NCBI GenBank assembly: GCA_027069135.1
Contig: JALXFE010000134.1
Span: 4,684 to 68,683, forward strand
Origin: Thermoanaerobaculia bacterium
GTDB lineage: Bacteria > Acidobacteriota > Thermoanaerobaculia > Multivoradales > JAHZIX01
DNA length: 64,000 nucleotides
Reading direction: 5' to 3'
Shown here: piece after piece, positions 3,364-10,633 of the stretch
Numbering within the stretch: the stretch's first letter is position 1
Layout: the number at the start of each line of letters is the position of its first letter
Notes under the pieces: model-generated
Database searches by the model: none
Seen by the model: only the letters and a program-made list of their open reading frames with translations
Told to the model about the DNA's origin: nothing
Program-made: the position numbers and the translations under genes

Positions 3364-3927
3364 ATGAGCGAAACACGACGCTGTGGTTGGGTTAGCGACG
3401 ATCCTCTCTACCTCCGGTACCACGACGAAGAGTGGGGTGTGCCGGAACATGACGACCGTCGGCTATTTGAGATGCTGATCCTCGAGGGGGCCCAGGCAGG
3501 CCTGAGTTGGATCACCGTGCTCAAGAAGCGAGAGGCCTATCGGGAGCTTTTCGAGGGTTTTTACCCGGAAACCGTCGCGAAGATCACGCCGACCCGGGTC
3601 GAAGAGCTGCTGCAGAACCCGCGCATCATCCGCAATCGCCTCAAGGTCGAGTCGACGGTGACCAACGCCCAAGCTTTCCTTGAAGTGCAAGAAGAATTCG
3701 GTAGCTTCGACGCCTACCTGTGGCGTTTCGTCGATGGGAAACCGAAGCTCAACGCCTGGAAGACTCTCGCCCAAGTCCCGGCTTCTACGGAGGAGTCCAA
3801 CGTTCTGAGCAAGGACCTCAAGAAACGAGGTTTTCGCTTCATCGGGACTACGATCTGCTATGCCTACATGCAAGCCGTCGGACTGGTCAATGACCACACG
3901 ACGGATTGTTTTCGCTATCCGCTCTAG
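3364..3927 (+). CDS. tag: DNA-3-methyladenine glycosylase I
   Basis: RCGW, YHDEEWG, LEGAQAGLSW, IIRNRLK, NDHTTDC. Confidence 0.96.
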   Translation: MSETRRCGWVSDDPLYLRYHDEEWGVPEHDDRRLFEMLILEGAQAGLSWITVLKKREAYRELFEGFYPETVAKITPTRVEELLQNPRIIRNRLKVESTVTNAQAFLEVQEEFGSFDAYLWRFVDGKPKLNAWKTLAQVPASTEESNVLSKDLKKRGFRFIGTTICYAYMQAVGLVNDHTTDCFRYPL

Positions 3928-4084
3928 TGTCCCGATTGGCTAATTCGCGTGAGAAATCGCGAGGCATTTCGGGACTCTGGTAAGGCGTGAGGACAAGTAA
4001 TAGCAGAGCTATTGCGCGGAGGAACAACGCAGCTAGAGCCCGAAAGGGCCGCGTATTTATGCGATGAATTTGTCAATCGGGACA

Positions 4085-5380
4085 CTAGCGGTCCCGCCGC
4101 AGAGAATGCAGCTGGCCCATGGTTCGGCGGATCAGCTCTGCCGTCACCTTCTCGCGCTCGGCGGCCTTGTGGAAGAGAAGCAAAGTCGCCATGGCCTCGC
4201 GGTGCATGCCTGTCGCTTGGAAGATCGGCAGCATCTCGTCGGCGAGAGTCTTGATTTCCACGGTCCGACCCTGCTCGAGGTAGACGGCTGCCAATTCGAG
4301 AGAGACGAGGGCCACATCCCAGGCGATCTTCTCTTGGATGAAGGCTTCTCGGGTCTCGAGAAACGCTCGTTCAGCCTCTTCGAGCTCGTTGCGTTCCCGG
4401 GCCATTCTCGCTTCGAGCCACCTCAACCGGAGTAGGTTTATGGCGTCCCCCAAGGCCTGGTAGAGAGGGCGGCTCTGTTCGAGGATTTCCGCCGCTTCTT
4501 CATGGCGATGCAGGTCGGTCAAATAGAGAACGAGGTTGTGGCTTGCCGCCAACGCCAATCTTGGTTCTCTTCGGGTATCGACCAGGGAAAGGCCTTCGCG
4601 GAGCAATGAAATCGCCTGTTCCGAGTTGCCAGCATATCCATGGTAGAGGGATTTGTAGATCACGGTCCGGCCAAGTAGGTGACGTTCACCACATTGGCGA
4701 TAGATGCGGATGGCCTTTTCGAGAAGCTGGAAACTCTCGTCGAACTGTCCCTGGTCCGCACGGAGCGATCCTCGCAGGCTCGTCAGCCAGGCGTTTTCCA
4801 GAAGGTCACCGCTACCACCTTCCTCGAGCAACTGCCCTGCTTCATCCAAAGCCTTCTCCGCCAAGTGCGGTTCACTGGCCACGCGATACGCGTTTGCCAA
4901 GATACCGAGACTTCTCGCTCGCAGATCGAACGTCGCAGCAGCCCCAAGAGCCCCACCCGGCAGGCGGTCGGAGATTTCTCTCGCGAGCTGCGCCAGAGCG
5001 ACAGCTTCTGGGGGCCGGCGGAAGCAGGCATCCAGGCTCCGCTCATGGAGCTTCTCGCAGAGCGGTCGATTTAGAAACCTGGAGCTATTCCGTACGAGAA
5101 CCTGGGCCCGTTCCGGCGGGTGCTTGAGAAGCTCCTCCAAGAGGGCCGGCGCTCGTTCCTTCTGGCGATCCAGCTCAGCGCGCTGGTCGAGAAGGGAGGG
5201 GAGCAACGAAGACAGGAGGTCCTGATACCCCCCTTGCGCCGCCTTCTCGAGGTCGCCCTGTTTCGAGGTGCGGGCCCGTCCCCCTCGGGCAAGTTGTGCG
5301 ATGCCCGATAGCTCCTCTGTTGTGAGTCGGGCCCTCAAGACCTCGGCGAGTTGTGACGACGGCTTAGCGTGGCCGGCCAT
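4085..5380 (-). CDS. Cytoplasmic tetratricopeptide-repeat protein (putative anti-sigma/peptide receptor)
   Basis: All-helical TPR-like repeats (GQFDESFQLLEKAIRIY, GNSEQAISLLREGL, RHEEAAEILEQSRPLY). No TM segment or signal peptide. Start ATG 5380 overlaps the sigma-factor 3' end. Confidence 0.8.
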   Translation of the reverse strand: MAGHAKPSSQLAEVLRARLTTEELSGIAQLARGGRARTSKQGDLEKAAQGGYQDLLSSLLPSLLDQRAELDRQKERAPALLEELLKHPPERAQVLVRNSSRFLNRPLCEKLHERSLDACFRRPPEAVALAQLAREISDRLPGGALGAAATFDLRARSLGILANAYRVASEPHLAEKALDEAGQLLEEGGSGDLLENAWLTSLRGSLRADQGQFDESFQLLEKAIRIYRQCGERHLLGRTVIYKSLYHGYAGNSEQAISLLREGLSLVDTRREPRLALAASHNLVLYLTDLHRHEEAAEILEQSRPLYQALGDAINLLRLRWLEARMARERNELEEAERAFLETREAFIQEKIAWDVALVSLELAAVYLEQGRTVEIKTLADEMLPIFQATGMHREAMATLLLFHKAAEREKVTAELIRRTMGQLHSLRRDR

Positions 5381-5912
5381 TGGCGACCTCCTGCAGAAAA
5401 CCGACTTCGACCAGCTGGCGGACAAGAGCAGCCAAACATCGATTGGCTACTTTACGCACACTGCTCTGCCGGTAGCCCATGCGCTCTGCGATTTCGTTCG
5501 GTTTCAGGCCCAATCCGTATCTAAGCCGCAGAATGGTGCGGCAGCGGGGCCGAAGGGTCGCCAAGGTCCGTTCCAGATCCTGGCGAAGGGTTACGTTTTC
5601 TTGGGAGGGCTTTTGACCCTCCGCCATGAGCTCGAGGATGGCTTCATCCACAGCCTCGTAGAGGCGGCTACGCCGGCTGCGCCAATACATGATGCAGCGG
5701 CGCCGCAGGGTTCCGATGAGCCAAGCCTCGGGTTTGATGACCGTTTCCCATTTGTACAAGAGCGTCAGGAGGGTGTCCTGGAGGACATCTTCCGCGTCCT
5801 CCCTCGGGATCTGGTAGCGACCGAGAATCTGCTTGAGAGTCGGCTGCACCCGCTTGAGCAAGAACTCGAAGTTCTCGTTGTCCTGCGCTTCTTCGGGGAT
5901 GGTCATCGTCAT
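5364..5912 (-). CDS. ECF-type sigma-70 family RNA polymerase sigma factor
   Basis: Region 2 (DAEDVLQDTLLTL...AWLIGTLRRRCIMYWR) and region 4 (LATLRPRCRTILRLRYGLGLKPNEIAERMG). Confidence 0.92.
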   Translation of the reverse strand: MTMTIPEEAQDNENFEFLLKRVQPTLKQILGRYQIPREDAEDVLQDTLLTLLYKWETVIKPEAWLIGTLRRRCIMYWRSRRSRLYEAVDEAILELMAEGQKPSQENVTLRQDLERTLATLRPRCRTILRLRYGLGLKPNEIAERMGYRQSSVRKVANRCLAALVRQLVEVGFLQEVANGRPR

Positions 5913-5932
5913 TGGAGAGGAATCCTTGTTGG

Positions 5933-6256
5933 TTACGGGCTACCGTCCGGTCCTATCCCCGGGCCGTTCTCGCCGTTTCCACCGTTCTCCGTCGTTCCTC
6001 CCGCGCCCTCGTCGGCGTTGGACGTACCGCCGCCTGAGTCGGAGGTCTTGGGGGAGGGATTTACCCCGGAAATATCCTCGGATCCATCCGGGAAGAGGTC
6101 GCTGAAGTAATTGAGGAGAAAGGAAATGGGACTCCACGATTCCTGATAGCCGGCTTCCTTTTCTGGAGAGGCTGCGGTCGCGGTCAGAGGAATACAGAGG
6201 AGCGTCGCGGTGACGAAGAACACTCCCAGGACGCGGCGGAAAAACCTCCCAGACAT
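5933..6256 (-). CDS. Small secreted protein / putative signalling-peptide precursor
   Basis: GGAGG RBS, Sec-type signal peptide (MSGRFFRRVLGVFFVTATLLCIPLTATAA), amphipathic helix, G/S/N/D-rich linker, C-terminus ENGPGIGPDGSP. Ends 20 nt before the sigma ATG. Confidence 0.75.
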   Translation of the reverse strand: MSGRFFRRVLGVFFVTATLLCIPLTATAASPEKEAGYQESWSPISFLLNYFSDLFPDGSEDISGVNPSPKTSDSGGGTSNADEGAGGTTENGGNGENGPGIGPDGSP

Positions 6257-6475
6257 CGAAAAACCTCCAAGGTCGTTAGAATGAAAAACTTGTGCTGTAG
6301 AGGGCCTACCCTAAGAAGTGCGGAGTGTCCGCGGATCCGGGACAATTCTCGCGGGTGCTGAGCCTGCTGGCTGTAGATATCTACACTATTCCAGTCTTTA
6401 GTGTGGTCGATATTTCTGTGATGAGGGGGTGAGTCGCTGGATCGCTCCGTGGGGAGAGTCGGAGATTCCGGGATC

Positions 6476-7561
6476 TCAAAAGGTCGCGGTGCTGGTCACC
6501 TCCCTCATCTTTTCTGCTTGGAGGCTGGCGAGGAGAGGGTCGATGAGGGGGTCCAACTCCCCTTCCATGACCTGTGGCAGCTGGTGGAGGGTCAGGCCGA
6601 CACGGTGGTCTGTAACTCGGTTCTGGGGGAAGTTGTAGGTCCGGATTTTCTCCGAACGATCACCGCTTCCAACCATCTTGCGCCGTTCTTCCGAGATGGC
6701 GCTTTGAGCCTTCTCGGTCTCGATTTCCAACAGCCGGGCCTTGAGAACCCGCATCGCTTTCGCCCGGTTCTTGATCTGGCTTCGCTCATCTTGGCAGGTC
6801 ACGACGAGGTTGGTGGGCAGATGGGTGATGCGTACGGCGGAGTAGGTGGTGTTCACCCCCTGGCCGCCCGGACCGGAAGAACAGTAGCGGTCGATACGCA
6901 GATCTTTTTCAGCGATATCGATTTCGACATCCTCCGCTTCCGGTAGGACGGCGACGGTGACGGCGGAGGTGTGGATTCGACCGGAGGCCTCGGTATCTGG
7001 GACTCGCTGTACCCGATGAACTCCACCTTCAAATTTCAGTCGGCTGAAAGCACCGCGGCCCTCGATGATGGCCGAGACTTCTTTGATGCCGCGGACGCCG
7101 GACTCCGAGAGGTCGATGATATCCACCTTCCAGCCGCGGTGTTCCGCGTACCGGCTGTACATGCGGAAAAGCTCCCCGGCGAAGAGGGTCGCTTCGTCGC
7201 CGCCGGTTCCTGCACGGATCTCCAAGACGACGTTGCGGGCGTCGTTGGGATCCTTGGGGAGCAGCTCTTTGCGCAACTCGCCCTCGAGCCCGGAAAGCTT
7301 TTGCAGCAGATCCTTGTGCTCGGTCTGGGCCAACTCGTAGAGCTCGTCGTCCTTCGCCAGCCCCTGCAGCATCTCTTCGGTATCCTCCTGCTGACGCCGA
7401 AGGTCCTGGTACTTGCGGTAGAGCTTTACGGTGTTGTCGAGGTCCGAGAGGGTCTTGCTGGCTTCCCGGAAGGCTGCCGGATCGGCGATGGTCTCGGGAA
7501 GAGACAGCTTGTGGGTGAGCTCCTCGTAGGTCTGTTCGATCTGGGCGAGCTTTTCAAGCAT
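6476..7561 (-). CDS. prfA: Peptide chain release factor 1
   Basis: [20 protein letters not shown] (PxT), [22 protein letters not shown]. Confidence 0.98.
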
Positions 7562-7981: not shown

Positions 7982-10633
7982 TCAGTCGAGAAAGCCTGCC
8001 TCCGCCAAGCTGGGGCCGTGCATGGCCGCATGCAGGAGGGTCGTCATGGTGGTCCGCCAGAAGAGCCGAAACGCAGGATTGTTGGAGAACACCATCACCT
8101 TTCCTCTCTCCTTGGGCTCGAGGCCTACCAGGACGGAGCCCGCAAGGCGATCGATCGCTTCCGGCCAGACGAATCCGGAAAGCACCGGCTGATCCTCTCG
8201 TACGGTCAAGAGGTCACGGCGGGGGTCTCCGCTCGGGAGGAGAATCCGCTCGCCCCAGGCCAGTACCGGAGTCGGTTCCGGAGAGAAGATCGTGAGGGCG
8301 TGGCCAGGGCTCGGGAGACCCGCCAGAGCGGCTCCGGGGGTCGGGAGGTGGCCCGACAAACTAGGGCGAGGGGTTCCGTCCGAGGAGGAATCCGGCTGCC
8401 ATTCCTCGAGCTCTATCAGGCCGAGATCTCGCAGCCAGGAGATGGAACCGCCGATGGCGATGAGGAAACCGCCCTTGTGCACCCAGCTCTCGAGGCTCTT
8501 GGTGACGGTCTCAGCGACGGCGTCGTAGCCGTCACCGTCCGGGAGGACGAGAACATCGAATTCGTCCAGCATCGAATCGTCGAGTCGTTCCAGATCCAGG
8601 CGACTGTAGGGCAACTCCACGAGGCGATCAAAGAGGAACCAGAGGGCTCCGTGCTCCGTGGCGGAGATTCCCTTTCCCCCGAGCAATCCGATACGGGGTG
8701 AGCGAATCGCGACCAACTCGTCGGAACCTGGCGAGACCTTACCGGCAAGATACCCGGAGGCCAATCGGTGAATCTTGAGGCCCAGCTCGTGACTGAGAGT
8801 CTCGAGGACCCGGTCGAGCTGCGGATCATTGCCGGAGGCCGGAATGAACATCGTCCCGGGAGGGAAAGTGGCTCCTTCAGCCTTCATCTCCTCCAGGGCG
8901 ATTCGGTAGCCGTAGCCATCCGTCTGGAGCCGCGCCGCGAGGCGAAACGCCGCAAGCCCTTGGGGAGGGACCAGGTAGCCGAGGGTTCCGTCGCCGCGAA
9001 TTCCCGCGTCGAGGTCGGCAGCTCCCGAGGGAATCACCGGTGCCGGAACCGCACCTTGAAGCGTCCAGGCCTCGATGCCGAAGGCGAGGGGGAGAGACCA
9101 TGAGGTGATGTCGTAGAACTGGGTCGAAAGGTTGCGTTCCAAACGTTGCCGCTGCGCGTGGATGAATTCCGCGGGCATTTCGGCTTCCCGCTCGAGAAGG
9201 GTCTTGGCGAGCCCTCCGAGGGGTTGGTGGGTGGTCACGACGTAGGTCCCGGCCTCAAAGCTCCGTTCTCGGGCCTCTTCGCCCAGGGAAGAGGTGGCCG
9301 TGAGGCGGGTCCGCTCTGCCAACGCTCCAACCTCGATCCCGTGGAGCTGAAGAAGGTCCGCGAGGCTTTTTCCTTCCGGCACTTGGGAGGACCAGAGGAA
9401 AGTCTGAGGATTCTCGGCGAACCCCCGGCGCCGTACATGGGCGAAATCTCGTAACAGATCCACCCGTCTCTCGGCGGCTAAGCGCACCGTCGTCATACCC
9501 GTGGTGAAGTGTCGGCCGATACGATCCGAAAGACTTCGGGAGTCTCCGCTCTTGCGTCGGAGGGAGAGGCCTCCCATGCCTCCCCCGGCCACCTCGAAGG
9601 TCATCCCAACGGCACCTCGAAGGGCGGGATAGGAGTCGCCGTAGGCGGGATAGAACAGGTCGAAATTCTGGGCCTTGTAGTAGAGCCAACCCTGGCGATC
9701 GAAGGCCGCTGCGTTGGCTCGTCCGAAGTGTTCCAGCCACGAGACGGTGCGGGCGTCGATCTCCGGCAGGATGGGCTCTGAAGCTGGGGGGAAAAAGTAG
9801 CTCGATTCGCTCCCCATCTCGTGGAAATCTGCGTAGACATGGGGTTCCCACCGCCGGTAGGTCGCCAATCGAGCCTCGGTTTCGATCTGGGTAACCCAGG
9901 CCCAATCGCGGTTGAGGTCCATGAGGTAGTGATTGAATCGCCCGCCGGGCCAAGGCTCCTCATGCTCGACCGCAATCCGGGAAGAGTCGGGCCGGTACCC
10001 TCGCCGCTGTACAAATCCCTGGACATACCGCTCGCGGCCGTCCGGGTTGACCAGCGGATCGATCAGGACCACCACGTTCTCGAGGAGCTTTTCCCACTCG
10101 CCGGAAGCAGCCGCCAGGGCATAGGCCGTAGCCATGGCAGCTTCCGTGCTGGAAGACTCATTGCCGTGGATGCCGTAGGCTAGCCAAACGAACGCCGGTT
10201 GGGAGGCCACCAGGTCGTCGATCTCTGCCCTGGAGAGGTCTCCGTCATTGGCCAAGATGAGCTGCCTCTTGCGCAGAATCTCAAGGCGTCTCAGATTGTC
10301 CTCGCTGCTGATGGCCAGCAAGGTCAAGGGACGATCTTCGTAGCTGCGGCCGTACTCCCTGAGCTCCACCCGTGGCGAGGCTTCCGCCAGGGCCTCCAAG
10401 TATTTGAGCATCCGGTCCTGGGGAGTAAACCGATGGCCGAGCTGGTAGCCGAGAATCTTTTCCGGCGAAGGAACACCTTCATCGGTTGGACCGAGGGGCA
10501 GAGGGCCGTTGTCATTCCGGGGAGCCGGCAGCTGTGTCCCGGAGTCTGTGGCGGATCGCGATGTCGGTGCAGCGGCAAGAGGCAGAGTCAGGACTAAGAA
10601 CCCGGCGATCCAAAGGGCAGCGAAGCGGGGCAT
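7982..10633 (-). CDS. Secreted M14 zinc carboxypeptidase with C-terminal glutamine-amidotransferase-like domain
   Basis: Signal peptide, IHGNESS (HxxE), NPDGRER, DLNRDW, DFHEM. Confidence 0.9.
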   Translation of the reverse strand: MPRFAALWIAGFLVLTLPLAAAPTSRSATDSGTQLPAPRNDNGPLPLGPTDEGVPSPEKILGYQLGHRFTPQDRMLKYLEALAEASPRVELREYGRSYEDRPLTLLAISSEDNLRRLEILRKRQLILANDGDLSRAEIDDLVASQPAFVWLAYGIHGNESSSTEAAMATAYALAAASGEWEKLLENVVVLIDPLVNPDGRERYVQGFVQRRGYRPDSSRIAVEHEEPWPGGRFNHYLMDLNRDWAWVTQIETEARLATYRRWEPHVYADFHEMGSESSYFFPPASEPILPEIDARTVSWLEHFGRANAAAFDRQGWLYYKAQNFDLFYPAYGDSYPALRGAVGMTFEVAGGGMGGLSLRRKSGDSRSLSDRIGRHFTTGMTTVRLAAERRVDLLRDFAHVRRRGFAENPQTFLWSSQVPEGKSLADLLQLHGIEVGALAERTRLTATSSLGEEARERSFEAGTYVVTTHQPLGGLAKTLLEREAEMPAEFIHAQRQRLERNLSTQFYDITSWSLPLAFGIEAWTLQGAVPAPVIPSGAADLDAGIRGDGTLGYLVPPQGLAAFRLAARLQTDGYGYRIALEEMKAEGATFPPGTMFIPASGNDPQLDRVLETLSHELGLKIHRLASGYLAGKVSPGSDELVAIRSPRIGLLGGKGISATEHGALWFLFDRLVELPYSRLDLERLDDSMLDEFDVLVLPDGDGYDAVAETVTKSLESWVHKGGFLIAIGGSISWLRDLGLIELEEWQPDSSSDGTPRPSLSGHLPTPGAALAGLPSPGHALTIFSPEPTPVLAWGERILLPSGDPRRDLLTVREDQPVLSGFVWPEAIDRLAGSVLVGLEPKERGKVMVFSNNPAFRLFWRTTMTTLLHAAMHGPSLAEAGFLD

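Follow-up and report, generated by a model that had tools for sequence, protein, structure and literature searches.

A candidate peptide-signalling cassette in a Thermoanaerobaculia genome: a small exported-peptide gene, an ECF sigma factor and a soluble TPR protein

In the RRNPP pairs (Rap-Phr, NprR-NprX, PlcR-PapR, AimR-AimP and Rgg-SHP), a propeptide gene lies beside the gene for a cytoplasmic tetratricopeptide repeat (TPR) receptor, and signalling by genetically encoded peptides through receptors of this sort is generally ascribed to the Bacillota. Here we describe a locus with a similar look in a diderm, at positions 4085-6256 of a 64,000-nucleotide window (the whole stretch of DNA that was analysed) from contig JALXFE010000134.1 of a Thermoanaerobaculia bacterium (Acidobacteriota). 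Three minus-strand genes encode, in order, a small open reading frame (ORF) product of 107 aa, an extracytoplasmic function (ECF) sigma factor of 182 aa and a soluble TPR protein of 431 aa. On its safest description, which is drawn from sequence, the locus would hold an ECF sigma factor and a soluble, anti-sigma-type TPR partner behind a conserved exported-peptide gene, and would be one member of a large family. Our main reading goes further: with a probability of roughly 0.35, the locus is an ECF sigma/soluble anti-sigma pair headed by its own exported-peptide gene and acting as an RRNPP-like autoinducing switch.

The RRNPP signature, as given in a survey that analysed Firmicutes genomes only, is an exported propeptide of 10-100 aa adjoining a TPR receptor of 250-500 aa (PMC10075063). 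The TPR protein described here falls within the receptor range, at 431 aa with TPRs and neither signal peptide nor membrane segment; the window precursor, at 107 aa, exceeds the propeptide range of 10-100 aa and is split from the TPR gene by the sigma gene, and a small ORF stands directly before the TPR gene at at least 29 of 74 related loci. Further likenesses are that most propeptides are, or by inspection here appear to be, exported by Sec, a few having no Sec signal (SHP and PrgQ in the RRNPP systems), that the C-terminus of the precursor is the informative part, that a genome holds many paralogous pairs, and that the cassette has no dedicated transporter. The differences are these: the host belongs to a diderm class of Acidobacteriota and not to the Bacillota; the output would come from a zinc-finger-type anti-sigma domain, or from an ECF sigma factor encoded by its own gene, in place of a helix-turn-helix (HTH) domain or a Rap-type helical bundle; the peptides have one conserved D-P-x-G core and an aromatic helix; and there is no detectable sequence homology between this family and the RRNPP receptors.

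The sigma/TPR half of the locus is closest to the class I zinc-associated anti-sigma (ZAS) pairs (sigmaE-ChrR, SigL-RslA and DdvS-DdvA), which likewise consist of a co-transcribed, overlapping sigma gene and partner, and whose anti-sigma domain is matched by the N-terminal profile of the family, the N-terminal His and the H...C-x2-C ligands included. Unlike in those pairs, the sensor is a soluble TPR superhelix instead of a cupin, a transmembrane segment or a CHAT domain; the ligand spacing is H-x4-C-x2-C, where the textbook ZAS spacing is H-x3-C-x2-C, and the window protein has no ligands; and about 42 of the 74 family loci have no adjacent sigma gene, while nearly all have a small peptide gene. 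TPR repeats also regulate an ECF sigma factor in group ECF42 (PMC7826278), where they are fused to the sigma factor and no anti-sigma factor is encoded; here the sigma factor has no C-terminal extension; the TPR region and an anti-sigma-type domain make up a protein of their own, whose gene is accompanied by a peptide gene. In the available part of the ECF reclassification, TPRs appear only in the fused extension of ECF42 and in a FecR-like partner of ECF267 (PMC7826278). No published account of a cassette of peptide, TPR anti-sigma factor and ECF sigma factor was found among the titles and abstract openings listed in the library searched.

TPR receptors of C-terminal motifs include Hop/CHIP with EEVD and PEX5 with PTS1. 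These, together with APPBP2 (RxxGP C-degron), share with our family the pairing of a TPR solenoid with a short conserved motif at or near a free C-terminus, and differ in belonging to eukaryotic chaperone, import or degradation systems; the likeness is in fold and logic only. What is new here is a combination of known parts, namely an ECF sigma factor, a ZAS-type anti-sigma domain, a TPR sensor and a Sec-exported propeptide.

The three-gene locus and its family-wide linkage

The features of the locus, all on the minus strand, are as follows.

6317..6344, minus: promoter-like TGTCCC-N17-GCACT, which begins 88 nt before the ATG of the small ORF; candidate ECF-type -35/-10 pair
5933..6256, minus: small ORF, 107 aa, with GGAGG before the ATG at 6256; putative precursor of an exported acidic, Gly/Ser-rich peptide
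6173..6256, minus: predicted signal peptide, residues 1-28 of the small protein; basic n-region, hydrophobic core, A-x-A site
6092..6136, minus: aromatic/amphipathic helix, residues 41-55 of the small protein
5942..5965, minus: C-terminal motif G-P-G-I-G-P-D-G, residues 98-105, followed by two residues
5364..5912, minus: ECF (group IV) sigma factor, 182 aa, with Pfam and NCBIfam matches
4085..5380, minus: TPR gene, 431 aa; degenerate anti-sigma-like N-terminus, long helix, TPR superhelix

The tight coupling of the three genes claimed by the initial annotation is confirmed: the small-ORF stop is 20 nt from the sigma start, and the sigma gene shares 17 nt (5364-5380) with the TPR gene, an overlap that is 8 nt in four of the five orthologous loci. 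The frame of the TPR gene spans 4085-5425, and the ATG at 5380 is the preferred start because GGAGG lies 8 nt upstream and the resulting N-terminus aligns with the orthologues. In gene arrangement the TPR protein is what is expected of the co-transcribed partner of an ECF sigma factor, its start overlapping the sigma stop. All five same-family genomes preserve the order tag, TPR, sigma, small ORF, prfA, so chance alone does not account for the arrangement. In 6/6 orthologous loci a bipartite element TGTC[AC]C-N17-[GA]CAC[TG] is found 85-95 nt upstream of the small ORF, its 17-nt spacer being non-conserved, and this element is a candidate promoter of the three-gene unit, probably of the ECF type. 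A scan of 3850-6550 for sigma-70-like promoters found none, and a terminator scan of the region gave nothing useful.

The sigma factor is what the initial annotation took it to be, with Pfam matches to Sigma70_r2 (8.9e-13, residues 18-82) and r4_2 (4.5e-8, residues 111-154) and an NCBIfam match to TIGR02937, sigma70-ECF (3.8e-21; 75.4 bits against a cut-off of 42.9). Its 182 residues hold the sigma2 and sigma4 domains only, as in ECF group IV. Across the five same-family genomes it is 70-85% identical and PrfA 71-76%, whereas the TPR protein, at 44-52%, diverges faster than either.

In the small protein, the Kyte-Doolittle 19-residue maximum is 2.06 at residues 9-27, with a cleavage site visible by eye between A-T-A and A-S; here and below, signal peptides were judged by inspection and a home-made heuristic. 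This layout is common to all six orthologues. The mature protein would be 79 aa long, G/S/P-rich and of net charge -11. Beyond the signal peptide, the orthologues and most of the related small ORFs have a comparable stretch rich in W, F and L, and the aromatic helix is present even in the versions that have no signal peptide. Furthermore, four of the seven invariant columns in the six-orthologue alignment (G98, I101, P103 and G105) fall within the C-terminal motif. A co-directional small ORF, preceded by GGAGG, GGGAGG or GGGAG, occupies the gap between sigma gene and prfA in 5/5 same-family genomes, and each of these positional orthologues combines a Shine-Dalgarno sequence and a signal peptide with an aromatic helix and, near the C-terminus, the motif G-x-x-I-x-P-[DI]-G, at an overall identity to the window small protein of 24-32%. 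Pfam and NCBIfam gave no family match for the window small protein, and NCBIfam nothing meaningful for six related small proteins. A chance frame would not retain Shine-Dalgarno sequence, signal peptide, helix and motif, and on these features we take the small ORF to be a real gene.

Three other identities were rejected for the small protein: a PEP-CTERM/LPXTG-type C-terminal sorting signal, as the motif has neither a membrane helix nor a basic tail behind it; a lipoprotein, as no lipobox is visible by eye; and a calcium-binding repeat, as the acidic ligands seem too few.

The linkage between the three genes was followed in relatives of the TPR protein. A family scan with one genome per species gave 490 relatives, of which the best 80 were used for locus counts; six loci with <700 nt of upstream sequence were dropped beforehand, leaving 74. 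In the strict count, a small ORF was a closed frame of ≥25 codons, ≤2 kb upstream of the TPR gene, ending ≤12 residues from a motif [MILVFTW][DCSNG]P[NDHWSAI]G or [MILV]D[DG]NG. Such an ORF is present upstream on the same strand at 45/74 loci, against 0/74 on the opposite strand and 4/66 in downstream stretches of equal length, at least two of the four downstream cases belonging to further cassettes. About 17 more loci have, by eye, variant or less terminal motifs (M-D-P-N-G then a tail, D-P-D-G-C-P-G, or H-G-T-I-V-P). The consensus of the motif at the small-ORF C-terminus is [MIL]-D-P-[ND]-G. A local hidden Markov model of the sigma subfamily matches at 34/80 loci, nearly always on the same strand, and at about 32/74 an ECF sigma gene immediately precedes the TPR gene. 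The strict count divides the loci by architecture:

small ORF + sigma + TPR: 16 loci
sigma + TPR: 16 loci
small ORF + TPR: 29 loci
TPR alone: 13 loci

The association of TPR homologues with small secreted ORFs or ECF sigma factors, which the initial annotation had proposed as a test, is thus borne out; its triplet survives as a pair, for the sigma gene stands between the two others in a subset only. Since the linkage of peptide and TPR genes persists where no sigma gene is present (at least 29 loci), the conserved core of the cassette is, on these counts, the peptide gene and the TPR anti-sigma gene.

The same picture is found within the genome of the window (7.17 Mb in 626 contigs), where the TPR protein has 26 matches at E ≤ 0.001. 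Thirteen of the 21 paralogues examined have a motif-bearing small ORF upstream, and four of the remaining eight have <350 nt of upstream sequence; a sigma gene lies beside three of the 21. One further triad is complete, on contig C419, with a 45-aa peptide ending M-D-P-D-G, and the candidate peptides of the own-genome paralogues range, by eye, from about 27 to 130 aa.

Among the 45 strict-motif ORFs, 38 appear to begin with a signal peptide. For the 37 with a D-P-x-G-type motif, the last copy is 0-2 residues from the C-terminus in 34, and the motif is present in 2-5 copies in 13; a terminal, often repeated motif suits a peptide end that is processed or recognised. Clustering of the ORFs flanking the 80 loci showed no recurrent neighbour besides the TPR and sigma genes, and specifically no recurrent transporter, protease or modifying enzyme, an absence that fits minimal receptor-propeptide pairs. 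LptF/G-like and MetK-like neighbours at six or seven loci are explained by local synteny.

In a quick tree, to which the statements on clades refer, the window TPR protein groups with its four orthologues (support 99), and sigma linkage is clade-structured, requiring 6 changes where shuffling requires 19.6 on average; in one large clade, 35 of the 38 rows have no sigma gene. The peptide motif variants follow the TPR clades. In the clade whose peptides end in C-P-H-G-H (three loci), the TPR protein is changed at D152, T/S190, G191 and D312, the first of which is D in 55 of the 61 sequences outside that clade.

The TPR protein, its N-terminal domain and its fold

The description of the third gene product as a soluble TPR protein of about 430 aa holds, with a Pfam match to TPR_12 at 7.3e-16 and, since the highest Kyte-Doolittle 19-residue mean is 1.18, no membrane segment. 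Its best 80 relatives come from Thermoanaerobaculia/Acidobacteriota records, from 'uncultured bacterium' records, or from one Deltaproteobacteria-labelled record (the same-genus genome G001). Of 301 sampled Acidobacteriota genomes, with five candidates scored per genome, 11 have a match at E ≤ 1e-30, all in the same class. At the same threshold there are 4,921 matches among 1.84 billion cluster representatives (clusters at 50% identity), and the nearest protein-atlas clusters are all from Acidobacteriota and named only TPR or hypothetical proteins. The family is thus large and apparently restricted to Thermoanaerobaculia. Genome G001 (record JAHZIX01; loci L036 and L067) is labelled 'Deltaproteobacteria bacterium'. 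By its genes it falls among the Thermoanaerobaculia, and the name is probably obsolete or mistaken.

Most relatives start with H-P-...-L-x-x-F-x-x-G-x-L-...-H-L-L-x-x-C-x-x-C, and the H-x4-C-x2-C ligand pattern is present in 57/77. Pfam zf-HC2 matches 8 of 64 members (best E 4.2e-6) and is above its curated cut-off in one of ten members checked individually; four own-genome paralogues run against Pfam have no zf-HC2 match at E ≤ 1, so the anti-sigma link is made only via other members and the profile. That profile, built from 52 family N-termini and searched against 177,635 PDB sequences, finds DdvA (9.6e-7), RslA (1.8e-6), ChrR (7e-6) and a CHAT-domain protein (5.2e-5), the last with an N-terminus that aligns to the profile in the manner of the anti-sigma factors; only five PDB matches lie below E = 0.3, and the next is at E 0.32. 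On the strength of these profile and zf-HC2 matches and of the H-x4-C-x2-C pattern, the family is best described as soluble proteins in which a zinc-finger-type anti-sigma domain is linked to a TPR sensor. No sigma-TPR fusions were found among ten longer relatives checked.

Three of these longer relatives, metagenome representatives of about 1,100 aa (P0037, P0044 and P0085), apparently hold two family-type modules in tandem. In P0037, which was read through, an XRE-type HTH-like segment precedes each TPR region, in place of the anti-sigma domain; in P0044 and P0085, Pfam puts an HTH between the TPR regions. All three could be genuine fusions or could have arisen from faulty gene calls. The combination of an HTH with TPRs is the classical layout of RRNPP receptors.

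Two parts of the window protein matter for what follows:

5288..5362, minus: N-terminal helices, residues 7-31, aligning with the zinc-finger anti-sigma domain of most relatives; His/Cys ligands missing
4088..5083, minus: TPR superhelix, residues ~100-431, pLDDT (predicted local distance difference test) mostly >90; presumed ligand-binding sensor

The AlphaFold2 model of the window protein, from a 64-sequence alignment, is all-helical with a mean pLDDT of 90.8. Structural neighbours were ranked among 48,161 representative chains, and Foldseek agrees. LGN comes with Z 23.2 (297 residues aligned, root-mean-square deviation 4.5), Pins with Z 21.8, and APPBP2 with its C-degron is at rank 3 with Z 21.2. 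Peptide-binding TPRs, Rap and NprR among them, take ranks 4, 5, 6, 8 and 9, Rap and NprR having Z 18.5-20.1 over 281-301 residues: Rap-phi105 with peptide has Z 20.1, RapI 20.0, NprR-NprX 19.6, and RapH and Rap-pLS20 18.5 each, while PlcR-PapR is lower at 15.8. The best structural neighbours are thus peptide-binding TPRs. Polar residues conserved in the TPR region of the family alignment (A3) include N163, R166, R274 and N282.

Readings of the locus

If the locus works as an RRNPP-like switch with an anti-sigma output, its cycle would begin at the bipartite ECF-type promoter upstream of the small ORF, from which all three genes would be transcribed. The TPR protein would retain the sigma factor via its N-terminal anti-sigma-type helices. 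The small precursor would be exported by Sec and lose its signal peptide, and its C-terminal I/M-D-P-D/N-G end would be exposed or trimmed. As the peptide built up outside the cytoplasm it would be taken up again, and on the concave face of the TPR superhelix it would alter the retention of the sigma factor. The sigma factor would then transcribe its own operon, making a peptide-gated autoinducing switch. That the peptide, or a fragment of it, binds its TPR protein we hold, from sequence and model, to be slightly better than an even bet, and that it does so by export and re-uptake, in the manner of quorum sensing, to be possible at rather less than even odds. The peptide is the likeliest ligand in view of the sigma-independent pairing, the general aptitude of TPR domains for peptide binding, the terminal and sometimes multi-copy motif and the absence of accessory genes. 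The genome also carries nine SBP_bac_5 (Opp/Dpp-type) matches, which make an uptake route possible and are permissive only. Extended to the class, this reading would mean that Thermoanaerobaculia hold unrecognised RRNPP-like cassettes of a TPR/anti-sigma receptor and a propeptide ending [MIL]-D-P-[ND]-G, with some 20 channels per genome converging onto few ECF sigma factors, a generalisation that we regard as doubtful.

Several observations weigh against the switch. To our knowledge, re-import across two membranes in a diderm is without precedent for such systems. The window TPR protein and its four closest orthologues have no His/Cys zinc ligands, so that the window protein has at most a degenerate, zinc-free anti-sigma domain; its N-terminal helices are modelled at a low pLDDT of 46-70, and its own tie to the anti-sigma domain runs only through alignment A3. 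The anti-sigma role that the initial annotation gave to the TPR protein is nevertheless strengthened by the match of the family N-terminus to solved zinc anti-sigma domains. The fold similarity to Rap and NprR (Z ~20) is not far above that of unrelated TPR solenoids, which still reach Z 14.1 at rank 50, so it shows fold class and not descent, and a PDB sequence search with the full-length profile returned generic TPR proteins only, with no RRNPP receptor among the 60 matches listed. Signal peptides are missing from seven own-genome versions (C290, C38, C263, C83, C386, C502 and C294) and from four in other genomes (L045, L049, L064 and L097), several of which are only helix and motif, 27-45 aa long; Sec export is thus not obligatory for the family, and the exported precursor with a C-terminal motif of the initial annotation stands, by inspection, for the window ORF and its orthologues but not for every family peptide. 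The D-P-x-G core is nearly identical across the paralogues, so that only a few positions could set one pair apart from another. Co-variation of receptor and peptide, which had been suggested as a check, is seen in the C-P-H-G-H clade with its altered TPR positions and in that clade only, and so amounts to a single evolutionary event. The promoter-like motif was not found upstream of the other paralogue cassettes in the same genome, and none of its 20 genome-wide matches, about the number expected by chance on a rough estimate, defines a regulon. Finally, a query with the small protein in 40 related genomes gave no convincing relative, with one borderline case (E 0.007) inside a 589-aa frame, so the orthology of the small ORFs rests on position and common features. 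A complex prediction for the TPR protein with the mature small protein (residues 29-107) gave 0.06 and 0.04 against a mark of 0.32 and, being without controls, weighs neither way.

The alternatives differ mainly in what they make of the peptide. It may be mere cargo or output of the sigma/anti-sigma pair, a surface, matrix or antimicrobial product encoded by the first gene of a sigma-dependent operon, with the TPR protein sensing some other, cytoplasmic signal. We consider this tentative explanation a real competitor: target genes are common in ECF operons, the promoter-like element upstream of the small ORF would make it co-induced, and a common D-P-x-G core suggests one external partner better than it does pair-specific recognition. 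The linkage counts speak the other way, in that the small ORF is tied to the TPR gene and not to the sigma gene, both at the at least 29/74 loci with peptide and TPR genes and no sigma gene and in the window's own genome, where the peptide gene accompanies 13/21 paralogues and the sigma gene 3/21; moreover, motif variants track TPR clades, one of them coinciding with changed conserved TPR residues, and TPR domains bind peptides, the best structural neighbours being peptide-bound. Alternatively, the peptide could bind the TPR anti-sigma factor inside the cell without any re-import, export serving to remove it, as in a FlgM-like system or secretion monitor, or it could be a cytoplasmic antagonist; the unexported precursor, or a version without signal peptide, would dock via its aromatic helix, its C-terminal motif or both. 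This requires no uptake across two membranes, and it is the helix and motif, not the signal peptide, that are common to all versions, including those several members of 27-45 aa that consist of nothing else. We nevertheless think it unlikely, given that 38/45 strict-motif ORFs appear Sec-exported, that some 20 paralogous secretion monitors per genome are hard to rationalise, and that multi-copy C-terminal motifs better suit a released signal.

Two further alternatives concern the nature of the small ORFs themselves. As short precursors, some with 2-5 core-like motif repeats or Cys/His-rich variants, they recall those of ribosomally synthesised and post-translationally modified peptides (RiPPs) or bacteriocins, for which the TPR protein would be a regulator or immunity factor; no modifying-enzyme, protease or exporter gene recurs across the 80 loci, and most precursors have an ordinary Sec signal instead of a leader, which makes this quite improbable. 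The idea that the small ORF is a chance frame, with the sigma and TPR genes alone being real, draws on a GC content of ~60%, on the many spurious ORFs that overlap the region and on the missing family or protein-level homologue. It is scarcely credible against a small ORF at the same position in 5/5 related genomes and in dozens of paralogous cassettes, with 0/74 in the opposite-strand control.

On balance, the peptide-switch interpretation of the initial annotation is partly supported, and there is a real chance that diderm bacteria have, in these cassettes, peptide signalling of a new kind. If so, the RRNPP-like principle would extend to a new, diderm phylum and to a new, anti-sigma output, and peptide quorum sensing would be read out by release of a sigma factor, not by an HTH domain or a phosphatase. 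It would also partly explain the large ECF and TPR repertoires of Acidobacteria, and would offer dozens of natural, probably orthogonal peptide/anti-sigma/sigma triplets to synthetic biology. Even if the peptide is not the ligand, 4,921 clusters, of which those nearest to the window protein had been named only TPR or hypothetical proteins, can now be assigned to a soluble anti-sigma type with a TPR sensor, and a conserved group of small genes without a match in Pfam or NCBIfam is revealed.

Further cassettes and neighbouring genes

Six contigs of the window's genome (C593, C328, C225, C80, C370 and C525) carry TPR paralogues with near-identical N- and C-termini and divergent middle repeats, accompanied by peptides with two to four copies of an I-S-P-D-G or I-N-P-N-G motif. 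For most of these paralogues a contig end is no more than a few hundred bases away, and those on C370 and C525 are truncated. The pattern suggests recent duplication or gene conversion, which would also have broken the assembly.

On contig C380 (2055-3976), three ECF sigma paralogues of the same subfamily stand in tandem beside an LptF/G-like permease gene. In other Thermoanaerobaculia, the same cluster has small motif-bearing ORFs and a single TPR anti-sigma gene set among its members (L043, L046, L050-L052, L055, L057, L060, L061, L064, L071, L074, L076 and L078), the order in L043 being small-sigma-TPR-sigma-small-sigma. Contig C348, on which no TPR family gene was detected, has at 4194-4511 on the minus strand a 105-aa ORF with a signal peptide and two H-M-D-P-[NH]-G motifs, a possible orphan peptide gene.

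The peptides at L075, L083 and L106 end in E-G-P-G-[MI]-C-P-H-G-H and have His-rich linkers; at L058 the small ORF is on the other strand. The Met, Cys and His content of this variant hints at metal binding. Finally, about 1.7 kb upstream of the operon in the window, past prfA and rpmE, an 883-aa ORF with a signal peptide (7982-10633, minus strand) looks, by eye, like an M14-type carboxypeptidase.

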